This document shows positions 9,144 through 55,037 of a stretch of 64,000 nucleotides of DNA, in pieces. Under the pieces are notes generated by a model. It was not told where the DNA came from, ran no database searches, and saw nothing but the letters and a program-made list of their open reading frames with translations. The stretch comes from Candidatus Magasanikbacteria bacterium UBA922 (GTDB taxonomy: Bacteria > Patescibacteriota > Patescibacteriia > Magasanikbacterales > UBA922): the NCBI GenBank assembly GCA_002293825.1, contig DBDW01000012.1, positions 25,147 through 89,146 of the forward strand, written 5' to 3'. The stretch's first letter is position 1. The number at the start of each line of letters is the position of its first letter. A program made the position numbers and the translations under genes.

Positions 9144-10283
9144 ATGCCTCTTGATTCTGCACCACTTCCTTCTGAACAACCGGTTCGATTTTATAAATTT
9201 ATTGCACTCACGTTTCTTTTTATTACGCTTGCACTCGTGGGCACAATTATTTTCATGTCCTCAAAACGTGCCACGATTACCATTATTACCAAATCAGAAC
9301 CGCTTGAAGTGACGGACACTGTAGAGATACGTCCAGGTGATACTGAGGCTGTAATCTCAGGTATGGTTACGACAACAATAATTGAATATGAAAAAGTTTT
9401 TTCTCCTGAAGGTAGTAGAACTGAGGATGCGGTTGCAGTAGGTAAGGTGACACTGATCAATGAAACAACAGCTCCGCAGCCTTTGATTGCTACTACACGA
9501 GTGTTGTCAGCAGATGGAGTATTGTTTCGTCTCAAAGATGCAGTGACTGTTCCGGCGCAGGGTTCGATTACGGCGTCGGTATATGCGGATGTTCCTGGGG
9601 CACGTGGAAATATTGCTACGAGCACCTTCACTATCCCAGGATTAAGTGAAGAGAAACAAAAAGTGATTTATGCGAAGAGTGATAATGAAATGTCTGGTGG
9701 GGTACGTACGATTGGAATTGTGGACAACGAAGATGTGGAAAAAGCAGAGAAAACTGCACTCGAAGAAATGAAATTACGAGGTGCAGCTGCACTCGAAAAT
9801 TTTGCACGTGAAGGAATGGTCGGAATTTTTGATGTAGTACAATACACATTTGAAGATGTTGCAGGTATTGGCACGGAAGTAGACTCCTTTGTAATAAAGG
9901 GACGTGCCACAATTGCGGGCGTGTGGTACGACAATAGTCAGGCGCAATCATTTGCTCAGGACATGTTGAATAAGCGGGTCGTCGATAATAGTGAGATATT
10001 GTCTTCGGTTGAGCCAGCAGCAAGTGTCTCACTTGAGGGGTATGATCTCGAAACAGGTATTATACAACTGACGATTGCTCATCGCGGACTGGTAAATATT
10101 GATGAGAATAGTAGAGAATTAGATAAGAGTTCATTTTTTGGAAAATCAGAAGATGAGGTGAAGCGTTATGTGATGTCACTGAAGCACGTCGAAGGGGTGG
10201 AAATGTCGTTCAAACCGCTCTGGAATCGTAGCGTACCTCACGTAGCAAATAATGTAGAAATAATAGTTCGAGAGGTGCAGTAG
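9144..10283 (+). CDS. hypothetical N-terminally membrane-anchored protein
   Basis: 379 aa with one N-terminal TM helix and a soluble beta-rich remainder. Sits downstream of pilB and may be pilus-associated, but this is unproven. Confidence 0.5.
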   Translation: MPLDSAPLPSEQPVRFYKFIALTFLFITLALVGTIIFMSSKRATITIITKSEPLEVTDTVEIRPGDTEAVISGMVTTTIIEYEKVFSPEGSRTEDAVAVGKVTLINETTAPQPLIATTRVLSADGVLFRLKDAVTVPAQGSITASVYADVPGARGNIATSTFTIPGLSEEKQKVIYAKSDNEMSGGVRTIGIVDNEDVEKAEKTALEEMKLRGAAALENFAREGMVGIFDVVQYTFEDVAGIGTEVDSFVIKGRATIAGVWYDNSQAQSFAQDMLNKRVVDNSEILSSVEPAASVSLEGYDLETGIIQLTIAHRGLVNIDENSRELDKSSFFGKSEDEVKRYVMSLKHVEGVEMSFKPLWNRSVPHVANNVEIIVREVQ

Positions 10284-10614: not shown

Positions 10615-12366
10615 ATGGAAAAAGAACAACTCGAACATATACGTCATTCAGCTGCACATCTGTTAGCAGCGGCAGTCGAAGAATTATATCCGAATGCGAA
10701 GCGTACGATTGGTCCTGCAATCGAAGATGGGTTTTATTATGATTTTGATTTTGGAGCAGAAAAAATCAATGATGAGGATTTGAAAAAAATAGAAAAACGA
10801 ATGGGGGAAATTGTAAAACATTGGAAACAATTTGAGCATCGAGAAGTAACTGTGGATGAGGCAAAAGAATTTTTTAGAGATAATGAATACAAGAAAGAAT
10901 TGATTGAAGAATTTGCACATGAAGGTGCGGTACTTACGTTTTATACAGTGGGAAAATTTACTGATTTATGTCGTGGTGGACATAGTGAAAATCCATCAAA
11001 AGAATTACGAAATTTCACATTGCTTAGTGTAGCGGGAGCATATTGGAGAGGGGATGAGAAAAATAAGATGCTTACTCGAATTTATGGTACAGCATTTCCA
11101 ACCAAAGAAGAATTAGTGGAATTTTTGCGACTGAGGGAAGAGGCAAAGAAACGAGATCATCGCAAAATTGGCAAAGATCAGGAATTATTTCTTATTGATG
11201 ATCGAGTGGGTAAAGGGCTCGTGATGTGGCTTCCAAATGGTACGATTATCAGACAAGAGATCGAAAAATTAGCGATTGAAATGGAAGAGAAATACGGATA
11301 TCAGCGAGTCGTAACTCCGCATATGGCAAAAGAGGAGCTCTACCTCACCTCGGGTCATTTACCGTATTACAAAGAGGGAATGTATCCTGCAATGGTGATG
11401 GATGATGGTACATATTATATGAAGGCTATGAATTGTCCGCATCATCATATTATTTATGGATCGAGTCCTCGAAGTTACCGTGAACTTCCGCTACGTCTCG
11501 CAGAATATGGTACGTGTTATCGTAATGAGCTCTCAGGAACTCTTGCAGGATTACTCCGTGTACGAGGACTCACGATGAATGATGCACATATTTATTGCAC
11601 GAAGGAGCAAATCAAGAGTGAGTTCACACGGGTTATGGAGCTCACGATGAATTATTTCAAAATTTTTGGTCTTACGAATTATTGGTTCAGACTTTCAAAA
11701 TGGAGTCCAGATCATAAGGAAAAATATATTGATCAGCCAGAAAATTGGGAAATGACTGAAGCAGTGCTTCGTAAGGTTCTCACTGATATGAATGTGGCAT
11801 TTACTGAGGTCGAGGACGAGGCGGCATTCTATGGACCCAAAGTGGATGTGCAATTCAAATCAGTGATCGGGCGAGAAGAGAGTATGTCTACGATTCAGCT
11901 TGATTTTCTTGCACGTGAACGATTCCAGCTTCGATATATCGATGAGACAGGAAAGGAAAATGGTGACGTCTTTGTAGTGCATCGTGCGCCACTTTCTACA
12001 CACGAGCGATTTACCGCGTTTCTAATTGAGCATTATGCAGGTATCTGGCCAGTATGGCTTGCGCCCGTGCAGGTAGCGATAGTGCCGGTATCAGAAAAAC
12101 ATGTGGAAGGCGCAGAATTATTGGCAGATGAATTCAGAAAGGCGGGAATTCGAGTGTCTATAGACAAAGCTGATGAGACGGTGGGAAAGAAAATTAGAAA
12201 AACATCTCAGAGTAAAGTTCCCTATGCACTCGTTATTGGAGACAAAGAACTTGAAGGTGGAAAATTGATGGTGCGAGTGAGAGGTCGAGAAGAACAGGTG
12301 GAGATGGAAAAGAATGAGTTTGTGGACAAAATTGTACATGAGATTATGTACAGAGGTCAGGTGTAG
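10615..12366 (+). CDS. thrS: threonyl-tRNA synthetase (no N-terminal TGS domain; starts at the editing domain)
   Basis: Track ORF 10531..12366 uses an upstream TTG that overlaps the leader terminator. The likely real start is MEKEQLEHIRHSAAHLLA (HxxxH editing-domain motif). Class II motifs and a C-terminal anticodon-binding domain are present. Confidence 0.9.
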   Translation: MEKEQLEHIRHSAAHLLAAAVEELYPNAKRTIGPAIEDGFYYDFDFGAEKINDEDLKKIEKRMGEIVKHWKQFEHREVTVDEAKEFFRDNEYKKELIEEFAHEGAVLTFYTVGKFTDLCRGGHSENPSKELRNFTLLSVAGAYWRGDEKNKMLTRIYGTAFPTKEELVEFLRLREEAKKRDHRKIGKDQELFLIDDRVGKGLVMWLPNGTIIRQEIEKLAIEMEEKYGYQRVVTPHMAKEELYLTSGHLPYYKEGMYPAMVMDDGTYYMKAMNCPHHHIIYGSSPRSYRELPLRLAEYGTCYRNELSGTLAGLLRVRGLTMNDAHIYCTKEQIKSEFTRVMELTMNYFKIFGLTNYWFRLSKWSPDHKEKYIDQPENWEMTEAVLRKVLTDMNVAFTEVEDEAAFYGPKVDVQFKSVIGREESMSTIQLDFLARERFQLRYIDETGKENGDVFVVHRAPLSTHERFTAFLIEHYAGIWPVWLAPVQVAIVPVSEKHVEGAELLADEFRKAGIRVSIDKADETVGKKIRKTSQSKVPYALVIGDKELEGGKLMVRVRGREEQVEMEKNEFVDKIVHEIMYRGQV

Positions 12367-43351: not shown

Positions 43352-44626
43352 ATGGCATCAGAAATTGTGAAAAGTATACAGTATATCTGTGACGAAAAAG
43401 GCCTCAAATATGAGGTGGTAATGGAAGCACTTCAATCTGCGCTCGGAGCAGCGTATCGCAAAGACTTCGGGAACAAGCAACAAAATATCCAAGTAGTATT
43501 CGATCCCGAGACCGGGGACATGAAAGTGTGGGATGAGAAAGAAGTGGTCGAAGATATTTCCGAAGAAACATTACTCCATGATCAGGAAGAATTGGCACGA
43601 CGACGAGAAGAAGTACGTCGTGAAGGACGCGATCTCACTGAAGAAGAGATTGCTGATTTGGTGCGCTTCAATCCGAAGACCCAGATTATGATTACCGAAG
43701 CAAAAACTCATCAGAAGAATGCGAAGCTCGGAGATATTCTAAAGATCGATCTCGAAGTACCAGGAGATTTTGGCCGCATGGCAGCACAGACCGCAAAGCA
43801 GGTAATCATTCAGAAACTTCGTGAAGCAGAACGCAGTACCGTACTCGAAGATTTCAAGAAACAAGAAGGACACATTGTCCAGGGTGTCGTACAGAGACGT
43901 GATCGACATACGGGAGGCTACATGATCGACCTCGGGAAAATCACTGGAATCTTGCCACAGAGTGAGACAGTGTTTCGTGAACGCTATACTCTCGGTAATC
44001 GTATGAAATTCTACGTGGCATCTGTAGGACAGGGAGTACGTGGTCCAGAAATTCTCCTCTCTCGCAAAGACAAGCGTATGGTATCATTCGTATTCGAACA
44101 AGAAATTCCTGAAATCGCAAGTGGAGAAGTGGTGATCAAAGGTATCGCACGTGATCCTGGTGCACGATCGAAAGTGGCAGTAGCAACAGATGACGAATCG
44201 ATCGATCCTATTGGTGCATGTGTGGGACAGCGTGGAAGCCGTATTACCACGATTATCGATGAGTTGGGCGGGGAAAAGATCGATGTGATTCTCTACAATG
44301 AAAACGCTGAAGGATATATCAAAGCTGCGCTCTCTCCTGCAAAAGTGGTGTCAGTAGAATTGAATGATGAAACAAAAGAAGCGGTAGTCATGGTAGAAGC
44401 AGATCAATTCTCGCTCGCAATCGGGCGTGGTGGGCAGAATGTGCGTCTCGCAGCAGAACTCACGGGATGGAAGATCAAAGTGGTAGAAAAAGATGGTACA
44501 CAGGTGGCGGTAAGTGATGGGGAAGTCGTAGAAGCTCCACAGGTCGTGTCTCCTGAAGTGTCTGTTCCAGAAGAAGCTCCACATGCTGAAGCTGAAGAAA
44601 CTGCTGAAGAGAAGACTCAAGAATAA
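43352..44626 (+). CDS. nusA: transcription termination/antitermination factor NusA
   Basis: N-terminal domain, S1 domain and two KH domains (GACVGQRGSRITTII; IGRGGQNVRLAAELTGWKI). Acidic C-terminus. Confidence 0.95.
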   Translation: MASEIVKSIQYICDEKGLKYEVVMEALQSALGAAYRKDFGNKQQNIQVVFDPETGDMKVWDEKEVVEDISEETLLHDQEELARRREEVRREGRDLTEEEIADLVRFNPKTQIMITEAKTHQKNAKLGDILKIDLEVPGDFGRMAAQTAKQVIIQKLREAERSTVLEDFKKQEGHIVQGVVQRRDRHTGGYMIDLGKITGILPQSETVFRERYTLGNRMKFYVASVGQGVRGPEILLSRKDKRMVSFVFEQEIPEIASGEVVIKGIARDPGARSKVAVATDDESIDPIGACVGQRGSRITTIIDELGGEKIDVILYNENAEGYIKAALSPAKVVSVELNDETKEAVVMVEADQFSLAIGRGGQNVRLAAELTGWKIKVVEKDGTQVAVSDGEVVEAPQVVSPEVSVPEEAPHAEAEETAEEKTQE

Positions 44627-44638
44627 TTGTATAACAAT

Positions 44639-44670
44639 AAAAACACCCTACATCTGTGGGGTGTTTTTTA
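44639..44670 (+). terminator. terminator after nusA
   Basis: aaaacaccctacatctgtggggtgtttttt. Confidence 0.6.
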
Positions 44671-45597
44671 TGATTTTGTGGAAAGTTTTTTCTTATTATG
44701 TGCTATGTTCTTGTGTCTAAAATTCAAAACTTTGAAATCGTTTTTCTGCAGATAGTCGTCGGTGACGGTATAAAGTACCGGGGCAAAATTAGTGGTAATT
44801 TTTTCAATTTTTTCTATATGACCATTAATGGTAGTTTCTTTGTAAATTTCATTATAGCGAAAATAGTGCGCACCTCTTTTGATGAAACAGTGATTTTTTT
44901 CAACGAGGTGAAACTTTTGTGGTATTCGATGAGGAGAGAGTATTTGTCCTTTGAGATGGGTATCGGTGAGCCATATTTTGATTTGAAGTGGATATGCTGA
45001 TGTATTTTGTACTTTGAGATCTATAAAATTGTACAAAATCGTTGCTCCTCCACCAAATGGTAATGTTCTTCGTGAATCTGGAAAAACATCCATAGAATGA
45101 TGATGTCGCTCAATGGTCTCAATCGGAGCGTGTAGAAAAATCCAATACAGAAAATTCGATAATTGACAGAGCCCGCCACCAACTCCCTCGACAATCCTAC
45201 CATGTGATAATAACATCCCATCGACATACCCATTTTCATATCGAGGTTTGCCAATAATGTTCCATAGTGAAAAGATATGCTTCGGCTGTATGACCACACC
45301 GTTTAATTTTTCAACAGCTTGTCTCAGATTGATAATTTTTTGTTCTTGTAGCCTAGGATCACTGTCTCCCAGTTTGCGTCGTAATACGGATTGATGTCTT
45401 GCTACGACACACTGAAAAAAATCCTGTCTCCTCTCATACCTAATTCTAGGATCAAAAAAGTTTTGTATGTTTCTATATATATGACGTACAGAAATAATAG
45501 GCTTTTTGAGAAATGGATATTTTCTGGAAAGCGCGATTCTTTTTGGATGTTCGTAGCGATAGATACGTGTAGCAATTTCTTTTTCGATGTTTGTCAT
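44668..45597 (-). CDS. VanW-like family protein
   Basis: 309 aa with the GGGLCQLSN motif characteristic of the VanW domain. Confidence 0.75.
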   Translation of the reverse strand: MTNIEKEIATRIYRYEHPKRIALSRKYPFLKKPIISVRHIYRNIQNFFDPRIRYERRQDFFQCVVARHQSVLRRKLGDSDPRLQEQKIINLRQAVEKLNGVVIQPKHIFSLWNIIGKPRYENGYVDGMLLSHGRIVEGVGGGLCQLSNFLYWIFLHAPIETIERHHHSMDVFPDSRRTLPFGGGATILYNFIDLKVQNTSAYPLQIKIWLTDTHLKGQILSPHRIPQKFHLVEKNHCFIKRGAHYFRYNEIYKETTINGHIEKIEKITTNFAPVLYTVTDDYLQKNDFKVLNFRHKNIAHNKKKLSTKS

Positions 45598-45643
45598 ACT
45601 TCACGCCCTAGCGTGCTCTTTTTAAAATTAAAAACGGCTAAAC

Positions 45644-46003
45644 TTATCTCAGAATTTTTTCCATCACTCTTCCTCGTGCTAATTCATCTACGAGTTTGTC
45701 GAGATATCTCACTTTTTGTGTCAACGGATTTTTGATTTCTTCGATACGATATCCGCAGATTGTACCCGTGATGAGATGCGCATTTGGGTGGAGTGTAGCT
45801 CGTTTGAAAAAAGTTTCAAATGTTACGTTTTCTTCGATGAGACTGTTTATTTTTTTTATATCAAATCCCGTAAGCCATTCGATCACTTGATTCAATTCTT
45901 CTACCGTGCGGCCTTTTTTGGTGACTTTTGTCACATAGAGAGGATAGATCGAGGCAAATGTCATGCGTGCCATTCTCTCATCGTGTTGTGGTGAGGTGTT
46001 CAT
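45644..46003 (-). CDS. DUF2200-family protein
   Basis: MTFASIYPLYVTKVTKKGRTVEELNQVIEWLTGF signature. The track ORF extends to 46138 but overlaps the next gene, so the internal Met is the more likely start. Confidence 0.55.
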   Translation of the reverse strand: MNTSPQHDERMARMTFASIYPLYVTKVTKKGRTVEELNQVIEWLTGFDIKKINSLIEENVTFETFFKRATLHPNAHLITGTICGYRIEEIKNPLTQKVRYLDKLVDELARGRVMEKILR

Positions 46004-46046
46004 AGAGTGTTTAGGTTTTCTATCGCGTACGCGATATTTTTTTAGA

Positions 46047-46454
46047 TCAATGAGTTTCGACGTACGATGTAAAATTGTTGAGTATGGATTGCCAGCCATT
46101 CCTCTGCATCTCTTCTGAATTTTCTGTTTCCGCGTCAAATATGATTGTTACCCTCGTTTTGCCATCAACATCTTCGAAAGATATGTCTACCACTCTCCCA
46201 TCATCCATCGTATACGTAAACTTTTCTCCGACAACAATCTCATCATATGTCGCTTCGAAATCAAAACCAAAACTCTGATCACGGGCTTCCATTCTCGCTG
46301 TATATGTTCCGCCGACCCGCATATCATTCTCCGCATGTGGACAGCACCAGTCGTCTGAAGCAAAGTTCCAATGCACGATATGTGCAGGATTTGTATAATA
46401 CTCCCACACTTTTTTCTTGTCTGCTGAAATTGTTGCGTGAATGGTGATTTTCAT
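46047..46454 (-). CDS. SRPBCC-superfamily protein (AHSA1/polyketide-cyclase-like)
   Basis: 135 aa. Pattern KKVWEYYTNPAHIVHWNFASDDW...GGTYTARMEARDQSFGFDFEATYDEI. Confidence 0.7.
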   Translation of the reverse strand: MKITIHATISADKKKVWEYYTNPAHIVHWNFASDDWCCPHAENDMRVGGTYTARMEARDQSFGFDFEATYDEIVVGEKFTYTMDDGRVVDISFEDVDGKTRVTIIFDAETENSEEMQRNGWQSILNNFTSYVETH

Positions 46455-46505
46455 AATTTTTTATAAAATGGACTAGAAAAATATTTTTTGAATTTGTTAT
46501 TGGTT

Positions 46506-46527
46506 GTTAGATGATATATTAAACATT
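46506..46527 (+). repeat. partial attC-like core (GTTAGAT-GATATATT) at the distal end of the cassette array
   Basis: ggttGTTAGATgatatattaaacatt lies immediately 3' of minus-strand ORF 46529..47158. It matches the 3' ends of the other elements (GTTAGnTGATGT). No partner inverse core was found. Confidence 0.4.
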
Positions 46528-47188: not shown

Positions 47189-47264
47189 GCCTAACGGTCG
47201 CGTGTATGCGATGTGCGTCAGCATATGGGTGGAGCGAAGCGGAACCGCATACATGCTGTTAAAT
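47189..47264 (+). repeat. attC-like imperfect-palindromic element A (GCCTAAC ... GTTAAAT)
   Basis: 5' inverse core GCCTAAC (RYYYAAC). Arms gtgtatgcg / cgcatac. Internal ATATGGGTGGAG. 3' core GTTAAAT (GTTRRRY). The reverse strand reads ATTTAAC ... GTTAGGC. Followed on + by hairpin aatgat-gtattttcaaa-atcatt plus T7. Confidence 0.6.
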
Positions 47265-47673: not shown

Positions 47674-47800
47674 ATTTAACGTTCCTGCGTATGCGATGTT
47701 TGCCAGCGGTATAATTGCACGAAGTGCTTACCACTGGCAAATATGGGTGGAGGCTTGCGGAGGTACGGAGAAAGCCGTAACCGCATACGCAGTGTTAGCT
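47674..47800 (+). repeat. attC-like imperfect-palindromic element B (ATTTAAC ... GTTAGCT)
   Basis: Homologous to element A. It keeps ctgcgtatgcgatgt, ATATGGGTGGAG and aaccgcatacgcag, and has an inserted hairpin tttgccagcgg...ccactggcaaa. An 11-bp closing inverted repeat ctgcgtatgcg/cgcatacgcag. Followed on + by hairpin ccgacggtagtcgg plus ttgtttt. Confidence 0.6.
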
Positions 47801-47862
47801 GATGTATTCCTTTTCTTTTCCGACGGTAGTCGGTTGTTTTAAAAATTTTCAAATTTCTTTTT

Positions 47863-47990
47863 CCGTTTTGGGTGGTGGGCAGAGGGGAATTAAAGGGGTG
47901 AATGCCCGCCACCCAAAACACCTATTTCTGGTTTGAGGGAGGGGCAAGAGGGGAACTAAAGGGGTGAATTGCCCCGACCGAAAACATTCT
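47863..47990 (+). repeat. two tandem ~60-nt hairpin repeats with conserved loop AGAGGGGAAyTAAAGGGGTGAAT
   Basis: Copy 1 is gggtggtgggc-AGAGGGGAATTAAAGGGGTGAA-tgcccgccaccc. Copy 2 is gagggaggggc-AAGAGGGGAACTAAAGGGGTGAAT-tgccccgaccg. Located between the 878-aa gene stop and element B. Confidence 0.5.
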
Positions 47991-50625
47991 ATTGTTTCAA
48001 AAAGGCAATAATTATATTTAAATCTTCAGTTTTCAGTGGGTTTTCATTTGAGTTCTGTGTTGCATGTGTGCCACGATTACTCAGATCATTCCAGTAACCC
48101 TCTAGCTTTTTAATATCTTCTTCTTTCTTATCAATTTTTTTCAGATTTTCCCAAGGTACACCAACTCCACGAAGTCGATCTTTCATTAAACCAGTTTTTA
48201 ACAAAATTTTCTCGTCAATATAATGCTCAATTGCTGATTTTAAGTAACCAGAAACACAACTCAAAGAGTAATCGCTTTTCATTTCATTTTCCGCTTTCTC
48301 AATAAAATAGCTACAGGATTCATTCTGTGCTTCAAATATTCTGCCTGTTTTATCTTTTGACTCTCTGTCTACCTTGTAGGTGTAAACATGACAACCTTTG
48401 CCATTGCAACCTTTCTGTGTGTAATTTTTGCAAATATGATGAGTTTTATTGGTTGTTTCATTTTTAAGACTGTTTCCCCAATAAATCAACGAATCGTAAA
48501 ACAGTTTGTTATGCGTGAAAATTATAATCTGCCTATCTGATGACAGTTGTAAAAGTTTTTTAGCTAAAAAATCAGCTACTTCGTGATCAACACTGGTAAC
48601 AGGATCATCAAAAACAATTGGACATATATCATTTTGGCTTTCAATCTCTGCGAGAAATAATGCAAGCCCGACAGCCTTTTGTTCGCCATCGCTTAAAATT
48701 GCACGAACATCGTTTCCTAAAATTTTAAGCCTTGTACGAACAGATCCTTTGCCTGCCCCAGTCTTTTCAAGGCTGACTTCAATATTTTTACCCAAGGCTT
48801 TTAGTTCGTCTTCAAAAGATTGCCTTATTGAGTCCGTCAAAAGCTCATCGTGTGCCTTTGATCCCAACTCTGTAATTCCTCTAGTGCTTATACTTTGTTT
48901 TACGCTTTCATATTTTTGAACAGACTTGCAAATTGCAAAATGGCTTTCTATTTTTGTCTTCCATTTTGAAATATTTTGTTTGTCTTCAAGCTTGTTAATC
49001 TCAGTTAAATAACCGCTTATTTTCTGTGTTTTTTGAGTATCGGATTGCTGTAAATCATCTAGCTCTTTTTGCTTTTTTTCTGATAGTTCCTTTAGTTTTT
49101 CATCGGTATTCAATAGGTCTAGCGCATACTTTTCAGCGGTAGTCGCCTTGTCTTTTAACGCCCTTTCTATATCTTCTTTTTTCTTTGCAGCCACTACTAA
49201 CACTTGTTCAATTAATGTCTTATAATCTTGCTTCTGGTCGTTCTGTATCTCGGTTAAAGTTTTTTTCAAATTTTCTGAAAGAGTGAAATCCGTGACCAAA
49301 TCATCAATTTCTTTCTTCAGCTCGGTAATTTTATCAACAGAATCTTTGAAATTTTGTTGCGACTGATCATCCAAATATTGAGCGTATGCCTGAACAAGTT
49401 TTATGGCCTCCTCGCCTAACGGCTGGTGGCAATAGATACATTTTTCCTCATGATTAAAGACGGTCTGGTCAATTTTTGCGACATATTCTTTCGCCGATTC
49501 AATAAAAGTTTGCCATTCCTCACTGTCTTGAGCGGGTATATTTTTTAAAACTTCAAATTGTTTTACTCGTTCATCCCTTATTTTCTTTTTCTCTAAATAA
49601 TCCTTTATGGCAGAAAAAGTATTTGCTGTTAATTTCTCAAGGTTTGTTTTAACGTCAGATAAATGATTGTAAAGATCATCAATTTCTTTCTTTTCTTGAT
49701 TCAATACTTTTTTACTATCTTCCGTAGTGTTTTTTTCAAGGGAAGTCTTGTCTATTTTAAATTGAGCTAGTTGTGTTGCATCCTCCTCGGTAAAAAGTTT
49801 GTTAGTATCTAACAGTTGTTCTTCCTGTTCTGTTAATGAAGTTTTGCCAAGTAATGTTTTTAGATCATCAGAGTGAATAATATCGATCAATGTCTGTAGT
49901 TCGGGAGACGAGTCTTGCTTTTGTTGTTTCGCTTGATTTAACCTCTCTTTAAATTCATCAATAATTGTTGCGATTACTTGAAAAAAATTTAGCCCGAGCG
50001 GTTCTATGTTCACCGAGCTTTCGCGCTCATCTAAGAAAATTGGTAAATATTCTGTATCAAAAACTTTGATTTGACTGAATGGTGCAATGCCTCGGACCAA
50101 TTTATTATCCCATTTGAAAGTATTTTGTGTTTTATCATCTAATAAATAATCTACATGAACCTCTAATCCATCACCCTGATTATGGATGTTATCTAAAATA
50201 TCTTTAGACTTGATACCGCCAGCAAGCTCATTGATAATTCTGAAATAACCACTTTTCCCAGTGCCGTTAAGTCCAAAAATTATAGTACATGCAGGACTTA
50301 ATGTTATTGATTGGTTTGGAATAAGAGCATTAACGCCTTTTATATGAGTGATTTTTTGTAAAGAAAGTTTTTGTTTTTTTGAATTGTCTAGGGTTTCAGC
50401 TTCTACAATATCCTCTTGTTTTATCTCTTCATTATTTTCCTGATCATCCGTAATCTGATTTTCCTTTAGAAGCTCTTGAAATATTGCATTTTTTTCGGCA
50501 TCCGAAATTTTTGCATTGGCATCTATTACTTTTTGAATCAACAAAACAAGCCATTTTGGCGTGTCGCTTTTGGCTTTGTATTCAAGCAGGTAGTCCTTAG
50601 CATGTGATTTTGTTGAGTTACTCAT
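47989..50625 (-). CDS. ABC-type ATPase with a long coiled-coil insertion (AAA_13 / RloC-PrrC-like architecture) plus a Cys-containing C-terminal domain; candidate defence or abortive-infection protein
   Basis: 878 aa. N-terminal Walker A IIFGLNGTGKSGYF. About 450 aa of predicted coiled coil. Signature-like ILSDGEQKAV. Walker B PIVFDDPVTSVD. H-loop IIFTHN. About 190-aa C-terminal domain with CKNYTQKGCNGKGCH. AT-rich relative to the core genome. Confidence 0.7.
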   Translation of the reverse strand: MSNSTKSHAKDYLLEYKAKSDTPKWLVLLIQKVIDANAKISDAEKNAIFQELLKENQITDDQENNEEIKQEDIVEAETLDNSKKQKLSLQKITHIKGVNALIPNQSITLSPACTIIFGLNGTGKSGYFRIINELAGGIKSKDILDNIHNQGDGLEVHVDYLLDDKTQNTFKWDNKLVRGIAPFSQIKVFDTEYLPIFLDERESSVNIEPLGLNFFQVIATIIDEFKERLNQAKQQKQDSSPELQTLIDIIHSDDLKTLLGKTSLTEQEEQLLDTNKLFTEEDATQLAQFKIDKTSLEKNTTEDSKKVLNQEKKEIDDLYNHLSDVKTNLEKLTANTFSAIKDYLEKKKIRDERVKQFEVLKNIPAQDSEEWQTFIESAKEYVAKIDQTVFNHEEKCIYCHQPLGEEAIKLVQAYAQYLDDQSQQNFKDSVDKITELKKEIDDLVTDFTLSENLKKTLTEIQNDQKQDYKTLIEQVLVVAAKKKEDIERALKDKATTAEKYALDLLNTDEKLKELSEKKQKELDDLQQSDTQKTQKISGYLTEINKLEDKQNISKWKTKIESHFAICKSVQKYESVKQSISTRGITELGSKAHDELLTDSIRQSFEDELKALGKNIEVSLEKTGAGKGSVRTRLKILGNDVRAILSDGEQKAVGLALFLAEIESQNDICPIVFDDPVTSVDHEVADFLAKKLLQLSSDRQIIIFTHNKLFYDSLIYWGNSLKNETTNKTHHICKNYTQKGCNGKGCHVYTYKVDRESKDKTGRIFEAQNESCSYFIEKAENEMKSDYSLSCVSGYLKSAIEHYIDEKILLKTGLMKDRLRGVGVPWENLKKIDKKEEDIKKLEGYWNDLSNRGTHATQNSNENPLKTEDLNIIIAFLKQ

Positions 50626-51028
50626 CTTTTAGCTTTTTGTTAATATCTGAAAATGTTTTGCTGAAGTCTTTTTTTAACTCATGCTCCCAAACCCGGATCA
50701 CGTGCCAGCCTTCTTTTTTATAATGCCGATTCACCTCCTTATCACGTTCTTTATTCCGTGCGATTTTCTTTTCCCAAAACTCGGTTCTTGTTGCCGGCAT
50801 GGAGCCGTGTTTTTTGCAACCATGTCAGAAACAAGAATCCACGAAAATTACGGTTTTGTATTTCGGTAAAACAATGTCGGGCTTTCCGAAATACTTTGTT
50901 GAGTTTTTGAGATAACGATAGCCTTCTTTCCATAACGCTTTGCGGAGTAAGATCTCAATTTTGCTGTCCTTGTTTCTTACTTTGGACATGATGTCACTGC
51001 GTTTTGTTTTGGAAAAAATATCGGCCAT
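50618..51028 (-). pseudogene. vsr: very-short-patch-repair endonuclease gene interrupted by an in-frame TGA at the conserved Trp
   Basis: Two track ORFs sit in the same frame. The first ends ...KYKTVIFVDSCF, then a stop, then HGCKKHGS, then MPATRTEFWEKKIARNKERD...GWHVIRVWEHE. Together they reconstruct the Vsr motif FVxGCFWHGCxKH except TGA replaces TGG. Confidence 0.7.
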
Positions 51029-51030
51029 AG

Positions 51031-52113
51031 TTACTTGATAAATCGTATTTGGAGATTGAGCTTGATAAACAATTCGCCGTTTTCTTCGTAAATTGTGCCA
51101 TAGCCGTGACGAGTCGCACTAGGCGATTCCATGCGTGTATTGTTGAACAGGTAATTTCGAAATGCTTCGGCATTGTAGAGGTGATAGCAAACTATTTCGC
51201 CGTCTTCGCGAACAATGATCACGCCTCCGTGCGCTCGTAAAGTTCCGTCCCAAGGACTTGCGGGGACCATACCCAAAGCGGCGTTATTGAGTAGGGATTT
51301 GATTTTGTATTCGTAATCTTCTGTTGTGAGGTTGAAAGTCAAAATTTGCACTTCTTCATCTTGCAAGTGTTGTAGTAGTTCGGGAAAAGTTGAGCCTTTG
51401 TCGGAAAAATAAGCCAAAAGAACCTCTGCCATTATTTCAGGCATAATCGTATCAATTTTTCTCAAATTTCGTTCAAAAACTTCGGAATCAACCTTATGAA
51501 AAGCGAAACTTCCGCCAGCTTCACGAATCGCAAAAAGTCGATCACGAATTTTTGACTTGGTGTCGATTGCGTTTATCCTTTTTAGATTCTGTTTATCAAG
51601 CCCTGTTATTTTGTATGTAAAATTGGTCGCCCCCGAAGCGTTGAGCAAGGTTGCTGGCGAACCCAGTTTTGATTTAATGCTGAATCCGATTTCATGATCT
51701 CGTCCGATCGTGTGATCATGCACTTTTAAAATCAGGTCTTCTTTTCGTGAATTTCCCGCATTAAGTGTTTTAACTGCAAGACGATCAAAAAGTTCCTCTG
51801 CGAGCGGAACGGAAAAGGTCTGTGACTTTTCTTTGATTTCACTAAAAATTTCCACAACTTTGGTTTTTAAGTCGGAAGTATCAACGATTGCCGTTTCTCC
51901 GTTTCCGTGTAGGATTTTGACTTTTTCTCCTTCTTGCAATTCGTATTCCAGCTTTCCTTCGGATTCTTCACGTATGATTTTCAAAATGGGAAAGAAAATC
52001 GCCTCGATTTTTTCGAGATCTTGATCTGCGCCGATAATTTTCTTGTCGACGAGCAGTTTTATAAAAGCGTAAAACTCGCTCCATTCTCCTTTATTTCCTG
52101 TGATCATAAGCAT
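51031..52113 (-). CDS. putative type II restriction endonuclease (family not recognized)
   Basis: 360 aa. Co-oriented, and overlapping by 23 nt, with the upstream C5-MTase gene. Possible PD-(D/E)xK-like stretch VDTSD...EIFSEIKEK. The call rests mainly on context. Confidence 0.45.
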   Translation of the reverse strand: MLMITGNKGEWSEFYAFIKLLVDKKIIGADQDLEKIEAIFFPILKIIREESEGKLEYELQEGEKVKILHGNGETAIVDTSDLKTKVVEIFSEIKEKSQTFSVPLAEELFDRLAVKTLNAGNSRKEDLILKVHDHTIGRDHEIGFSIKSKLGSPATLLNASGATNFTYKITGLDKQNLKRINAIDTKSKIRDRLFAIREAGGSFAFHKVDSEVFERNLRKIDTIMPEIMAEVLLAYFSDKGSTFPELLQHLQDEEVQILTFNLTTEDYEYKIKSLLNNAALGMVPASPWDGTLRAHGGVIIVREDGEIVCYHLYNAEAFRNYLFNNTRMESPSATRHGYGTIYEENGELFIKLNLQIRFIK

Positions 52114-53008
52114 TTAGTGATTTTATAATTTGTTGTGCGACCGCATTAATCGCATTGACGGCAACAGCATTGCCAAGCTGCTTCATGGCTTGTACTTCCG
52201 AAACCGGAAACTCGAAGTCATCAGGGAAGCCCATCATTTTTTTACCTTCAACGGGCGACAATCTTTTTACTTTACCTTTCACTCTGTAAGCGTCCCAATT
52301 TCTGCGGTCATCAATTCCCGATCCACGACCTCCGCAACGTAGTGTGTAGCCGACTTCTTTTTCGCAAGGTGCGCCCCAAATATCGGACATGGTTTTTTCA
52401 AGTTTGATAGGTTCGGGAAATTCAAATTCCACATCCGGATCACGAAAACCGACCATGAATAATCGCGGACGATGTTGTGGAAGTCCGAAATCGGACGCTT
52501 TCACAATTTTGTAGTGGAAGGAGTAACCAAGATCTTTGGTAATCGTGTTTTTTATAACTTCAAATGTTTTGCCATTGTCGTGCTTCAGTAGATGACGGAC
52601 GTTTTCAATAAAGAAAGCACGTGGTTGTTTTTCCTTGATAATTCGCACGATGTCGTGAAAGAGTGTGCCTCGCGTGTCTGCAAATCCTTTTTTGAAACCG
52701 GCTTGTGAAAACGGCTGACAAGGGAAACCTCCCGTTAAAATATCAAAGTCCGGGATTTCCTTTTCATTCACTTTGGTTATGTCGCCCGCAAAAAGATTTT
52801 TACCTTTTGCGAATAAGCCCACTTCAAAAAGTTCAGGCTGTATTTTTCGGAAATTATGTTCGTATGTCTTGCGTGCGTGTTCATCCCATTCACTCACAAA
52901 AACACATTTTGCGCCCGCATTATGAAAAGCCAAGTGAAAGCCGCCTATTCCTGCGAACAGGTCAATGAAAGTTATATCTCGTTTTGTCTTTTGAGTTTTT
53001 GCTTTCAT
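52091..53008 (-). CDS. DNA (cytosine-5)-methyltransferase, short-TRD, M.HhaI-like backbone
   Basis: Motif I FIDLFAGIGGF. Motif IV GFPCQPFS. Motif VI ENV. Motif VIII QHRPRLFMVGF. Motif X GNAVAVN. 305 aa. Confidence 0.9.
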   Translation of the reverse strand: MKAKTQKTKRDITFIDLFAGIGGFHLAFHNAGAKCVFVSEWDEHARKTYEHNFRKIQPELFEVGLFAKGKNLFAGDITKVNEKEIPDFDILTGGFPCQPFSQAGFKKGFADTRGTLFHDIVRIIKEKQPRAFFIENVRHLLKHDNGKTFEVIKNTITKDLGYSFHYKIVKASDFGLPQHRPRLFMVGFRDPDVEFEFPEPIKLEKTMSDIWGAPCEKEVGYTLRCGGRGSGIDDRRNWDAYRVKGKVKRLSPVEGKKMMGFPDDFEFPVSEVQAMKQLGNAVAVNAINAVAQQIIKSLNAYDHRK

Positions 53009-53011
53009 AGA

Positions 53012-53320
53012 CTATTTTATTAAATCGTTAATATCCACTTCCAAGCCTTGTGCAACTTTGGTTAGTGTTTCTATTGTGGGGTTTCCGTTTGTTCCCGATT
53101 CCAAAGTAACAATGGTATTGAGTGCAACATCGGCAAGTTTTGAAAGGCGATCTTGTGATATGCCTTTCTCGGTACGGATTCTTTTCAGATTTTTTCCTAT
53201 GTTTGAAATGTTTGGTTTCATATACCGGTAAAATGTAATATTTTCACTGGTTGTATTGTATCGTGTTTGAAAGTTTGGGTCAATTTTATAAAAATGTTCC
53301 GCTGATAGGCGGAACTCCAT
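53012..53320 (-). CDS. XRE-family HTH controller (C-protein-like) of the R-M module
   Basis: HTH IGKNLKRIRTEKGISQDRLSKLADVALNTIVTLESG. The likely start is the internal Met MKPNISN (about 53221), giving about 70 aa. Sits immediately upstream of the MTase on the same strand. Confidence 0.7.
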   Translation of the reverse strand: MEFRLSAEHFYKIDPNFQTRYNTTSENITFYRYMKPNISNIGKNLKRIRTEKGISQDRLSKLADVALNTIVTLESGTNGNPTIETLTKVAQGLEVDINDLIK

Positions 53321-53458
53321 ATATTCCCCTCATCAAATAAAGCGTTTCCGTAGCGTAACGGAGGAAACACCATATTTCCCCTTAATAAAAAAAGAAAAAG
53401 AAATTTGAAAATTTTTTAAAACAATTGGGCGATAGCCCAGAAAAGAAAAGGAATATTT

Positions 53459-53640
53459 CAGCTAACGTTCGCCGATATCAGATGTGCCGCCATTGTTTTC
53501 AGCACATACTTTCATTTACCATTATTCATTGTAAGCACTTCAAACCTGCAATTCAAGAAGCGGCATATGGGAGAAGAAAATTGCGCCACATTTGAAAATT
53601 CCAAGGCGAAATTTTCTGAACCTGATATCGGTTGTTAGCT
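53459..53640 (+). repeat. attC-like element C: 23-nt inverted repeats AGCTAACGTTCGCCGATATCAG / CTGATATCGGTTGTTAGCT flanking ~140 nt
   Basis: tttcagctaacgttcgccgatatcag ... cctgatatcggttgttagctgatg. The ends share cTAACGTTCG and GTTAGCTGATGT with elements A and B. Confidence 0.6.
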
Positions 53641-54054: not shown

Positions 54055-54176
54055 AGCGATTGATTTATGAAAAGTTTAGTGAGGCAAATTTCAGCTAACT
54101 CCTTTTATACGAACAATTGGGTATTTCCGCTAAAATAGAGTATACTTTACCTATCTATGTGAAATCAAGGAGGGGT
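54055..54176. promoter_or_regulatory. attI-like junction between the recombinase gene and the first cassette; contains core AGCTAAC (GTTAGCT on the cassette strand) at 54093..54099
   Basis: tttcagctaac repeats the 5' end of element C. A strong SD aaggagggg lies 6 nt before the recombinase ATG. Confidence 0.45.
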
Positions 54177-55037
54177 ATGAATTCACTATATCGTAGTTCA
54201 AATTATCGACCAAGCCGTGACCCATTGGTTCTTTTTGTACAAGAAATGAGATTAAGAGGATTAAGTGATAAGACTCAAAAGTCGTATCATTATTATTTGG
54301 ATGAATGTCTGAGGTTTGTCGACTATAAATCTCCAAAAGAAATTTCAGCTGCTGACGTTCGGAGTTATTTGTTGTGGCTTGCTGATAATCATAAAAGTGC
54401 CTCAACGTTGAATATTGCATATTCGGCACTGCAATTTTATTTTCAAAAAATTCTTCGTAGAAATTTTTTTGCCATGATTCCACGTGCAAAAAAAGAAAAA
54501 CGTTTACCGGTCGTACTTTCGCAAAAAGAAATACAGAGCTTGATTGGTGCGATTACGAATAGGAAGCATCGTGTAATAGTGGAATTGCTCTATGGATCTG
54601 GATTACGTGTGGGTGAGGTGGTGCGAGTTCGGATGAAGGATATTGATTTGGATAGGATGCAATTACATGTAGTGCAAGGGAAAGGATCAAAAGATAGGTA
54701 TACTATTATCCCACGTTCTATCTCTACTATTCTTGCTACGCAAATGAATGTAAAACAACCGAGTGATTTTTTGTTTACCAATGGGCATGGTGGACGATTA
54801 CATGAACGTAGTGTGCAAAAAATTGTTACTCGAGCTGCGCAGACTGCTCGGATTTCCAGGTCGGTGAGTGTACACACGCTTCGTCACAGTTTTGCGACTC
54901 ATTTACTCGAAGCTGGTACGGATATTCGATATATCCAAGAATTGCTTGGTCATACAAAGATTGCTACTACTCAAATATATACGCATGTAGTACGATCAGA
55001 TTTAAATATGATTACGAGTCCACTGGATCGTATATAG
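54177..55037 (+). CDS. tyrosine site-specific recombinase, XerC/XerD-like (no IntI-specific insertion)
   Basis: N-terminal SAM-like domain (LSDKTQKSYHYYLDECLRFV). Catalytic R (LLYGSGLRVGE), K (GKGSKDR), HTLRHSFATHLL, LLGH and Y (TTQIYTHV). Only about 35 aa lie between the GKGSKDR and HTLRHSFA boxes. Confidence 0.85.
   Translation: MNSLYRSSNYRPSRDPLVLFVQEMRLRGLSDKTQKSYHYYLDECLRFVDYKSPKEISAADVRSYLLWLADNHKSASTLNIAYSALQFYFQKILRRNFFAMIPRAKKEKRLPVVLSQKEIQSLIGAITNRKHRVIVELLYGSGLRVGEVVRVRMKDIDLDRMQLHVVQGKGSKDRYTIIPRSISTILATQMNVKQPSDFLFTNGHGGRLHERSVQKIVTRAAQTARISRSVSVHTLRHSFATHLLEAGTDIRYIQELLGHTKIATTQIYTHVVRSDLNMITSPLDRI

Follow-up and report, generated by a model that had tools for sequence, protein, structure and literature searches.

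The 64,000-nt stretch of contig DBDW01000012.1 analysed here (the window) carries a gene cassette of 5786 nt in which a HpaII-family type II restriction-modification (R-M) system is followed, in the same operon, by the gene of an 878-aa Rad50-like ABC ATPase. The cassette lies in an integron-like array next to the gene of a Xer-like tyrosine recombinase. The best explanation, which we favour by a modest degree of belief, is that the R-M system serves as a first line of defence, that the ATPase is an autonomous, RloC-like second line which aborts infection, and that the cassette is mobile. The arguments come from the ATPase itself, from the R-M systems beside its homologues, and from sister cassettes in which other genes occupy its place.

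Operon layout

On the minus strand, positions 53320..47989 read as a tight five-ORF operon in which intergenic gaps are at most 3 nt and several genes overlap. The restriction endonuclease and methyltransferase ORFs share 23 nt, vsr begins 2 nt after the endonuclease end, and the ATPase ATG overlaps the vsr stop by 8 nt, at ATGAGTAA. A sequence-only reading of the window had placed five ORFs here, and all of them were found at those coordinates:

53012..53320, minus strand: controller-type XRE/C helix-turn-helix (HTH) ORF, 102 aa (HTH_3, 2.5e-10; PADLOC Control_protein, 4.4e-6)
52091..53008, minus strand: C5 cytosine DNA methyltransferase (MTase), 305 aa, with a short target-recognition domain (PF00145, 3.1e-85; TIGR00675; M.HhaI)
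51031..52113, minus strand: HpaII-family type II restriction endonuclease (REase), 360 aa (PF09561 RE_HpaII; PADLOC REase_II)
50618..51028, minus strand: pseudogene of vsr, a T:G mismatch endonuclease (Vsr, 1.2e-25; TIGR00632 once W is restored)
47989..50625, minus strand: Rad50-like ABC ATPase, 878 aa (AAA_13; PADLOC PDC-S06, subgroup PDLC04892)

The block had also been described as low in GC. This applies to the ATPase gene (34.1%, with 37.4% for the whole block) but not to the REase and MTase genes (40.7% and 42.3%), which equal the 64-kb window mean of 41.1%.

The ATPase

The ATPase matches the PDC-S06 profile PDLC04892 over its full length (1.3e-199; residues 6-877 against profile positions 2-837 of 843). 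Pfam AAA_13 (PF13166) matches at 69.7 bits against a cutoff of 36 (2.8e-19), ending at profile position 596 of 713 and leaving the C-terminal domain uncovered. Within PADLOC the only matches are PDC-S06, mad3 and LmuB, the last two weak, in a library for which the presence of an RloC model is unconfirmed. A database search returned 83 relatives from Patescibacteria, Actinobacteria, Legionella pneumophila, an anammox bacterium, Deltaproteobacteria, Gracilibacteria and an Arsenophonus plasmid; the family is patchily distributed and horizontally spread.

In an alignment of 63 sequences (50 close and 13 distant homologues), G118, N120 and K124 of Walker A, S645 and E648, D673 and D674, and H705 are invariant, which covers Walker A, the signature, Walker B/D-loop and the switch His. 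Equally invariant are C396 and C399 of a C-x2-C motif, and Q401 is nearly so (>=90%). The full-length AlphaFold2 model (mean pLDDT 81) consists of a three-helix N-terminal domain, a split ABC head, helices 213-610, a beta-hairpin region and a C-terminal helical domain. Its top Foldseek match among solved structures is Rad50 (7zr1, 4e-10), followed by SMC heads, JetC and LmuB; a sequence search of the PDB returned an SMC head only (0.0055). The architecture expected from the sequence-only reading is therefore present, with a predicted coil of about 400 aa rather than 450:

48796..49989, minus strand: aa 213-610, coiled-coil insert splitting the ABC head (AlphaFold2 secondary structure)
49429-49440, minus strand: C396-x2-C399-x-Q401 at the coiled-coil midpoint, a putative zinc hook (conserved alignment columns)
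47992..48480, minus strand: aa 716-878, C-terminal region comprising a beta-hairpin that carries the H730/C732/C740/H746 knuckle, followed by a helical HEPN-like domain

The CxxC at the coil midpoint resembles a zinc hook, and zinc binding there is putative. The knuckle, which bears out the C-terminal Cys/His feature noticed earlier, is kept in 46-50 of the 50 close homologues. The helical domain behind it carries K796-x3-E800, D804, E805, S849, R851 and H854. Position 796 is Lys in 47 of the 50 close homologues and Arg in all 13 distant ones, E800 is present in 60 of the 63 sequences (Asp in the remaining three), and H854 is invariant; D804, E805 and S849 are kept in nearly all sequences and R851 in 46 of the 50 close homologues. 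PrrC (R320/E324/H356) and RloC (R692/E696/H737) show the same [K/R]-x3-E...H pattern in their catalytic triads (PMC2610378), and the nuclease domains of both belong to the HEPN superfamily (Anantharaman et al., PMC3710099). Fold comparison of the domain returned 1ufb and 1jog and, further down, LsoA, sacsin and other HEPN toxins, with generic four-helix bundles scoring 6-7. Foldseek of the domain against the PDB gave nothing significant, the best match being the HEPN-like 2q00 at E 0.29.

Searching with a profile of the C-terminal domain brought up 1788 cluster representatives at 50% identity, and the best 150 of these are mostly proteins of 830-900 aa with the domain C-terminal. PrrC-sized carriers (350-490 aa) were considered and rejected: ten shorter ones that were checked are fragments of PDC-S06 genes. 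The PADLOC PrrC profile PDLC02360 does not match the window protein at E<=0.01, and a literature search linking AAA_13 or PF13166 to RloC found nothing useful. The evidence supports an ATPase that is RloC-like in architecture, with membership of RloC or PrrC not established. Of the RloC/PrrC likeness originally proposed, the RloC-like architecture and the R-M linkage of the family stand.

Several results weigh against the explanation that we favour. The first triad position of the window protein is Lys, not Arg, its Arg-His spacing is R-x2-H against R-x4-6-H in HEPN domains, and the fold evidence for the HEPN-like domain is moderate and not exclusive. A Pfam search of the C-terminal domain gave no match, and in relatives the PADLOC PrrC HMM matches the ATPase lobe only (model positions 98-261 of 372), never the nuclease third. 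Alignment of the C-terminal domain profile with the C-terminus of the PDC-S06 subgroup in sister cassette L044 (hhalign) has a probability of 0.1%, with the register, LRsAiE / LRPFLE, as expected. The papers found mention PDC-S06 as a computational prediction only, and none of them contains a biochemical or genetic test. As to the rest of the cassette, CCGG is not depleted in the window (observed/expected 1.02), which means no long-term restriction footprint; the vsr nonsense codon precedes the translationally coupled ATPase start and could lower ATPase expression; and the recombinase lacks the IntI-specific domain, its catalysis at attC sites being putative.

Some of these features also suit a DNA-directed defence protein of the SMC/Rad50 kind, comparable to Lamassu or Wadjet, in which the C-terminal domain would be regulatory or serve dimerization and killing would proceed via DNA or a distant partner. 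The best folds (Rad50, SMC, JetC and LmuB), the weak LmuB and mad3 profile matches, the Arg-to-Lys change, the non-canonical R-x2-H spacing and a HEPN fold that is not exclusive all agree with such a protein. It sits less well with a single-gene family that has no conserved partner gene across the contexts examined, or with the conserved polar E800, H854 and K/R796, whose presence in a small helical domain suggests catalysis, and we regard it as rather unlikely.

R-M partners and the slot after vsr

Linkage to R-M genes was counted over twelve independent genomic contexts of ATPase homologues. Nine are R-M-adjacent, and in eight of those nine the ATPase gene is co-directional and directly downstream, at gaps of at most 75 nt or overlapping. 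The linkage spans phyla and is also seen outside cassettes of this kind, in Legionella and Actinobacteria. RloC-like ABC-HEPN genes have been described from R-M and Fic/Doc neighbourhoods (PMC3710099). The contexts are (percentages, ATPase identity):

Window and L017, 100% and 90%: HpaII-type C-M-R-Vsr, upstream/adjacent
L016, L003 and L005, 88%, 84% and 73%: AlwI-type M-R-M
L018 and L012, 78% and 55%: EcoRI-like methylase with GmrSD_N/HNH
L010 (Legionella), 53%: type I hsdS-hsdR
L007-9, 57%: divergent C5-MTase-Vsr-EcoRII, plus Fic
L014, 53%: Fic
Two further loci: no R-M

Comparison with sister cassettes shows that the cassette consists of two separable modules, an R-M half and an ATPase half. 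Two AlwI-type cassettes (L003 and L016) share with the window an 80-nt leader, the ATPase gene and a two-hairpin trailer, and the R-M genes between are unrelated; identity is 86-89% at the nucleotide level for ATPase gene plus trailer and about 78% for the leader (BLAST, L003). Conversely, a search with the REase found 80 loci with the gene order M-R(-Vsr), and the ATPase is present only in L040, L041, L017 and the window. Where the REase is 82-94% identical, the homology of a cassette to the window ends just past the Vsr RVWEHE motif (~50664-50679) and returns at the trailer hairpins (~47993); in L045 and L048, which have no vsr, it ends at the REase gene end (51031). The 'single module' of the sequence-only reading thus goes too far, since its two halves recombine independently. 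What occupies the position of the ATPase in the sister cassettes varies:

L045: fused AriAB (PARIS), 603 aa (PDLC02981, 1.5e-57)
L042: Ppl-like ATPase, 924 aa (1.1e-37)
L044: another PDC-S06 subgroup, 790 aa (3.9e-205; AAA_13, 1.7e-42)
L052: HerA-like ATPase (DUF87)
L043:2828-4384: unannotated 518-aa protein, no Pfam or PADLOC match
L048:7393-8775: unannotated 460-aa protein, no Pfam or PADLOC match
L059:2878-6039: unannotated 1053-aa protein, no Pfam or PADLOC match
L055: empty

The slot after vsr is therefore a hotspot for single-gene back-up defences, and of all contextual arguments for what the window ATPase does, this one is the strongest. Position alone makes the 518-, 460- and 1053-aa proteins candidates for new defence genes; a D...E-x-K-like motif (DDFIFQIECKK) is present in the 518-aa protein.

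The tight operon with its overlap of vsr stop and ATPase start, the consistent place of the ATPase at the 3' end of R-M operons, and the precedent of PrrC (PMC2610378, PMC3710099) would all fit a PrrC-style coupling, in which the ATPase is kept latent through contact with its own R-M proteins and released once a phage anti-restriction factor inactivates them. However, ATPases that are 73-90% identical follow HpaII-type, AlwI-type and EcoRI-methylase/HNH systems, and a 53%-identical one follows a type I hsdS-hsdR; it is implausible that the ATPase contacts each of them specifically. Near-identical HpaII-type modules, in turn, pair with quite different slot genes or with none (L055). Because 73-90%-identical ATPases serve unrelated R-M enzymes, a specific silencing contact is unlikely and an autonomous RloC-type sensor fits better; with at least four unrelated R-M systems served by the same ATPase, direct silencing by the partner probably does not take place, and we consider PrrC-style coupling improbable.

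Mere co-packaging, with a slot that collects any gene and an ATPase functionally unrelated to the R-M system, strikes us as quite improbable. The slot does hold 518-, 460- and 1053-aa genes that carry no defence annotation, and PARIS functions without an R-M partner (PMC12409363). Yet all annotated occupants are defence genes (PDC-S06 twice, AriAB, Ppl-like and HerA-like), and the R-M adjacency of the ATPase family in 9 of 12 contexts crosses phyla and extends beyond cassettes of this kind. A housekeeping SMC/RecN/RecF-type paralogue, suggested by weak SMC_N matches in homologues, one JGI annotation as RecF and a fold resembling SMC heads, is effectively refuted by the PDC-S06 match at 1.3e-199, the patchy taxonomic spread including an Arsenophonus plasmid, contexts that are always mobile or defence-related, presence or absence between near-identical cassettes, and a gene GC content 7 points below that of the genome.

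Proposed function

By analogy with RloC, the ATPase is most likely an autonomous second-line abortive effector. The R-M system would act first and cut unmethylated sites, presumably CCGG. The Rad50-like ABC head, together with its zinc-hook coiled coil, would sense a consequence of infection, with DNA ends, damage and a phage protein, anti-restriction or other, as candidates. An ATP-dependent rearrangement would then free the C-terminal HEPN-like domain ([K/R]796, E800 and H854), which may cut RNA, most plausibly tRNA anticodon loops, so that translation halts and the infection aborts. The adjacent Xer-like recombinase would move the whole unit by catalysing attC x attC/attI recombination.

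Cassette boundaries and mobility

The sequence-only reading had proposed an attC-like-bounded unit that can be mobilized as one cassette. Such a unit exists and is slightly larger than the block originally delimited, running from 53465 to 47680 (5786 nt); as the R boxes are read in the sequence, it opens with the TT of the upstream R' box and closes with the G of the R' box in its own attC. The features of this unit, referred to as cassette Z, and of its surroundings are:

47680..53465, minus strand: whole cassette Z, 5786 nt, with leader, C, M, R, vsr pseudogene, ATPase, two hairpins and attC
53460..53640: upstream attC-like site, of the preceding cassette with a 139-aa ORF; R boxes AGCTAAC (53460-53466) and GTTAGCT (53634-53640), plus strand
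47674..47800: cassette Z's own attC-like site; R boxes ATTTAAC (47674-47680) and GTTAGCT (47794-47800), plus strand
53324..53449, minus strand: cassette leader with hairpin GTTTCC-N13-GGAAAC, conserved, also in AlwI-type cassettes
47865-47920 and 47931-47986, minus strand: two tandem 56-nt hairpins, the 3' trailer, directly after the ATPase stop
54117..55037, plus strand: Xer-like / integron-integrase-like tyrosine recombinase, divergent from the cassettes (PF00589, 1e-40; PF13495, 6.6e-19)
54093..54099: attI-like R box AGCTAAC separating the first cassette from the recombinase gene, from sequence reading only

The array comprises four cassettes on the minus strand, with attC-like sites at 46480-46512, 47189-47264, 47674-47800 and 53460-53640. 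Three of the sites are complete (76-181 nt) and the fourth has one arm only, with RYYYAAC / GTTRRRY boxes in each; the attC-like call is based on boxes, stems and folding. The L-box stem is CCGATATCAG / CTGATATCGG in the upstream site and CTGCGTATGCG / CGCATACGCAG in cassette Z's own site, which folds as DNA with a z-score of -4.2 to -4.6. The inner stems of different sites covary (GTATGCG/CGCATAC versus GATATCAG/CTGATATC), and about three extra unpaired bases are found on the plus-strand 5' arm at the sites that were folded or read (47189, 47674 and 53460). All units on this side of the window are flanked by attC-like sites, which share a conserved core, CTCCACCCAWAT; genomes of 20 representative species, mostly Patescibacteria, contain this core. 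In the first cassette, the 139-aa ORF has its stop codon inside the R box.

Cassette-specific inverted repeats that reach outward from the R'/R'' boxes bracket all cassettes. They measure 26, 28 and about 75 nt, the two shorter ones lying at 46506-46533/47168-47195 and 47258-47283/47655-47680, and the longest, that of cassette Z, having arms at 47794-47869 (right) and 53388-53466 (left). In an excised circle these repeats would lengthen the attC stem (R''/R' pairing) beyond the R boxes.

About 80 nt of the leader recur at L003:2421-2542, L016:~440-540, L042:~11556-11716 and L048:~9671-9809. Its hairpin has 6 bp, and AlwI-type cassettes show the compensatory GTTTTC/GAAAAC for GTTTCC/GGAAAC; the leader could act as promoter, operator or RNA element. 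The trailer hairpins carry a conserved 21-nt loop (TTCACCCCTTTAATTCCCCTC, sense strand) and recur just before attC-like sites in related loci, whatever gene precedes. A role as genome-wide REP elements was rejected, the two copies being the only ones in 64 kb, and classic terminators are unsupported by a terminator scan, with no T-run after the hairpins. An Rfam scan of 44-56 kb at E<=1 matched the leader, hairpins and attC-like sites to no RNA family. The same scan region holds a Phe_leader match at 44611-44671, outside the cassette, which is most likely due to chance (28 bits against a gathering threshold of 55; E 0.29). Beyond the last attC-like site, minus-strand ORFs at 44668-46454 show no attC-like boundary between them and are either degenerate cassettes or chromosome backbone; the GC skew changes sign near 45000.

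Mobility of cassette Z as a unit between arrays is supported by locus L017, from another metagenome, in which the cassette is 90% identical over 5783 nt, with the same start junction (G followed by TTAGCTGAAATATTCC), and sits between upstream and downstream cassettes that differ from those in the window. The same unit between different neighbours also bears out the proposal that it is mobilizable as one cassette. L017 contains, at positions 700-1392, an attC-like interval of ~690 nt that holds a reverse-oriented small membrane-protein ORF with its own flanking 20-nt inverted repeats; this could represent an inverted cassette or the insertion of a cassette into an attC site. Contig L016 opens (positions 1-30) with a sequence that resembles a tRNA gene 3' end (GGTTCGAGTCC...) and lies within a few hundred bases of the cassette array, which hints that some arrays adjoin tRNA genes.

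The recombinase scores 244 bits with TIGR02249, below the cutoff of 265, and 235 bits with NF040815 (XerA/integron-integrase), above the cutoff of 220. Aligned with IntI1 it has 32% identity and about 40 aa of gaps across the IntI-specific domain. Because it falls below the TIGR02249 cutoff and is without the IntI-specific domain, the platform is classed, on profile and sequence comparison, as integron-like rather than as a canonical integron. Recombinase homologues adjoin HpaII-type cassettes in L042, L052 and L117.

R-M genes

The claim of a complete controller-regulated type II R-M system was borne out in its gene content, which comprises a C-type HTH protein, a C5-MTase with all motifs, a HpaII-family REase and a vsr pseudogene. 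The MTase reaches 292 bits with TIGR00675 (cutoff 100.65) and matches M.HhaI at 4e-73. The 360-aa ORF, presumed to be a REase of orphan fold, is indeed a REase but no orphan, since PF09561 RE_HpaII matches at 4.1e-115 across profile positions 1-359 of 359 and PADLOC REase_II at 2e-103; a sequence search of the PDB gave no match for it. RE_HpaII and a C5-MTase together define a HpaII-family type II R-M system, with a specificity that is presumably CCGG, taken from the name of the family; the CCGG ratio in the window (1.02) is uninformative on this point.

Among promoter-like sites in the region the best, TTGACC-17-TACAAT with 10/12 consensus matches, lies at 53255..53283 on the minus strand, within the annotated XRE ORF and 34 nt upstream of Met34; it is a consensus match only, as the total count of promoter-like sites in the region is no higher than in shuffles. 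The gene call in a related locus (L002) gives an XRE protein of 69 aa, and the same 69 aa are 88-100% conserved in related loci. Given the site inside the ORF, this gene call and the conserved segment, the C protein probably starts at Met34 (53221) and has 69 aa instead of 102. No C-box operator was identified upstream of the HTH controller gene, and control of the operon by the C protein is putative.

The vsr frame, reported earlier as disrupted, is unbroken save for a single in-frame TGA at 50827..50825, in place of Trp68 in the FVDSCF-W-HGC motif. With W restored it scores 136 bits with TIGR00632 (NCBIfam cutoff 97.85). In the homologues of L017 and L042-L044 this residue is W. Because the 90%-identical copy reads TGG, the TGA is a recent nonsense mutation, and vsr a recent pseudogene. 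TGA-as-Trp recoding was rejected on three counts: TGG encodes the other four Trp residues of vsr, translation table 11 leaves the other genes intact, and the 90%-identical copy has TGG.

Implications and comparison with known systems

A broader interpretation, which we offer tentatively as a possibility, is a two-slot defence platform. Slot 1 would take any type II R-M system and slot 2 a single-gene 'anti-anti-restriction' sentinel, be it PDC-S06, PARIS, a Ppl-like or HerA-like gene or one of the three unannotated proteins, with the conserved leader and trailer insulating them and a non-canonical Xer-like integron, widespread in Patescibacteria, shuffling the contents; PDC-S06, like PARIS, would be triggered by phage counter-measures. 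If this is true, the 518-, 460- and 1053-aa slot occupants would be new defence genes.

The locus offers a testable hypothesis for the uncharacterised PDC-S06 family, as an RloC-like, HEPN-type back-up to restriction, and it comes with natural controls: one R-M system with PARIS, a Ppl-like partner or no partner, and one ATPase with four R-M systems. R-M and second-line abortive systems swapped as modules in a single mobile cassette would be a compact case of defence synergy. Five-gene cassettes of 5.8 kb handled by a Xer-like recombinase without the IntI domain would widen integron-type gene capture, including in small CPR genomes.

Of known kind are the HpaII-type R-M system, the catalogued candidate family, the theme of R-M plus ABC-HEPN (PrrC and RloC) and integron defence cassettes (10.1101/2024.07.02.601686). 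New are an RloC-like gene in an operon with type II R-M systems; a two-slot, combinatorially shuffled cassette with conserved leader and trailer; and large cassettes in an integron-like array whose recombinase has no IntI domain, in a probable member of the Patescibacteria. A literature search found no dedicated description of integron-like arrays with such large cassettes in Patescibacteria.

HpaII-type R-M systems with Vsr share with the window the M-R-Vsr order, common to 80 related loci, the C5-MTase and the RE_HpaII REase; the locus here differs in its broken vsr, its C protein and the appended effector slot. The window ATPase is a full-length member of PDC-S06, and the locus adds an R-M-coupled, cassette-borne context to what in the PADLOC catalogue is a computational candidate.

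RloC, a wobble-nucleotide-excising anticodon nuclease (Davidov & Kaufmann 2008, PMC2610378), has in common with the window protein a size of ~800-900 aa, a Rad50-like fold, an ABC head interrupted by a long coiled coil that has a CxxC at its centre, a small C-terminal domain showing a HEPN-like basic-x3-Glu...His pattern, and the nature of a single-gene system independent of one particular R-M partner. The window protein differs in having no demonstrated profile match, Lys for the triad Arg and an extra H-C-C-H knuckle; its gene is operonic with a type II R-M system, whereas RloC is rarely R-M-linked (PMC2610378). RloC cuts tRNA with wobble-base excision, an activity for which the window protein has a putative counterpart by analogy. 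PrrC-EcoprrI likewise combines an ABC ATPase with a C-terminal nuclease-type domain inside an R-M operon, as a back-up, and has the R/K-x3-E...H pattern. However, PrrC has ~400 aa and neither coiled coil nor zinc hook, against 878 aa and a 400-aa coil here, and it sits in a type Ic hsd locus, silenced by that type I system, whereas the window gene is linked to a type II system of the HpaII family.

PARIS (AriA/AriB; fused AriAB) occupies the same slot in sister cassette L045 and also joins an ABC ATPase sensor to a nuclease effector; it senses the anti-restriction protein Ocr, cleaves tRNA and works without an R-M partner (PMC12409363). Its ATPase is of the AAA_15/21 type without a coiled coil, and its nuclease is Toprim/DUF4435, not HEPN-like. 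Sedentary chromosomal integrons carry phage-defence cassettes that are small and 'streamlined' (bioRxiv 10.1101/2024.07.02.601686), and resemble the array here in holding defence genes, including R-M, as attC-bounded cassettes beside a tyrosine recombinase. In contrast, the cassette described here spans 5.8 kb and five genes, has its own leader and a terminator-like trailer, and lies beside a recombinase without the IntI-specific domain, in a probable patescibacterial host.

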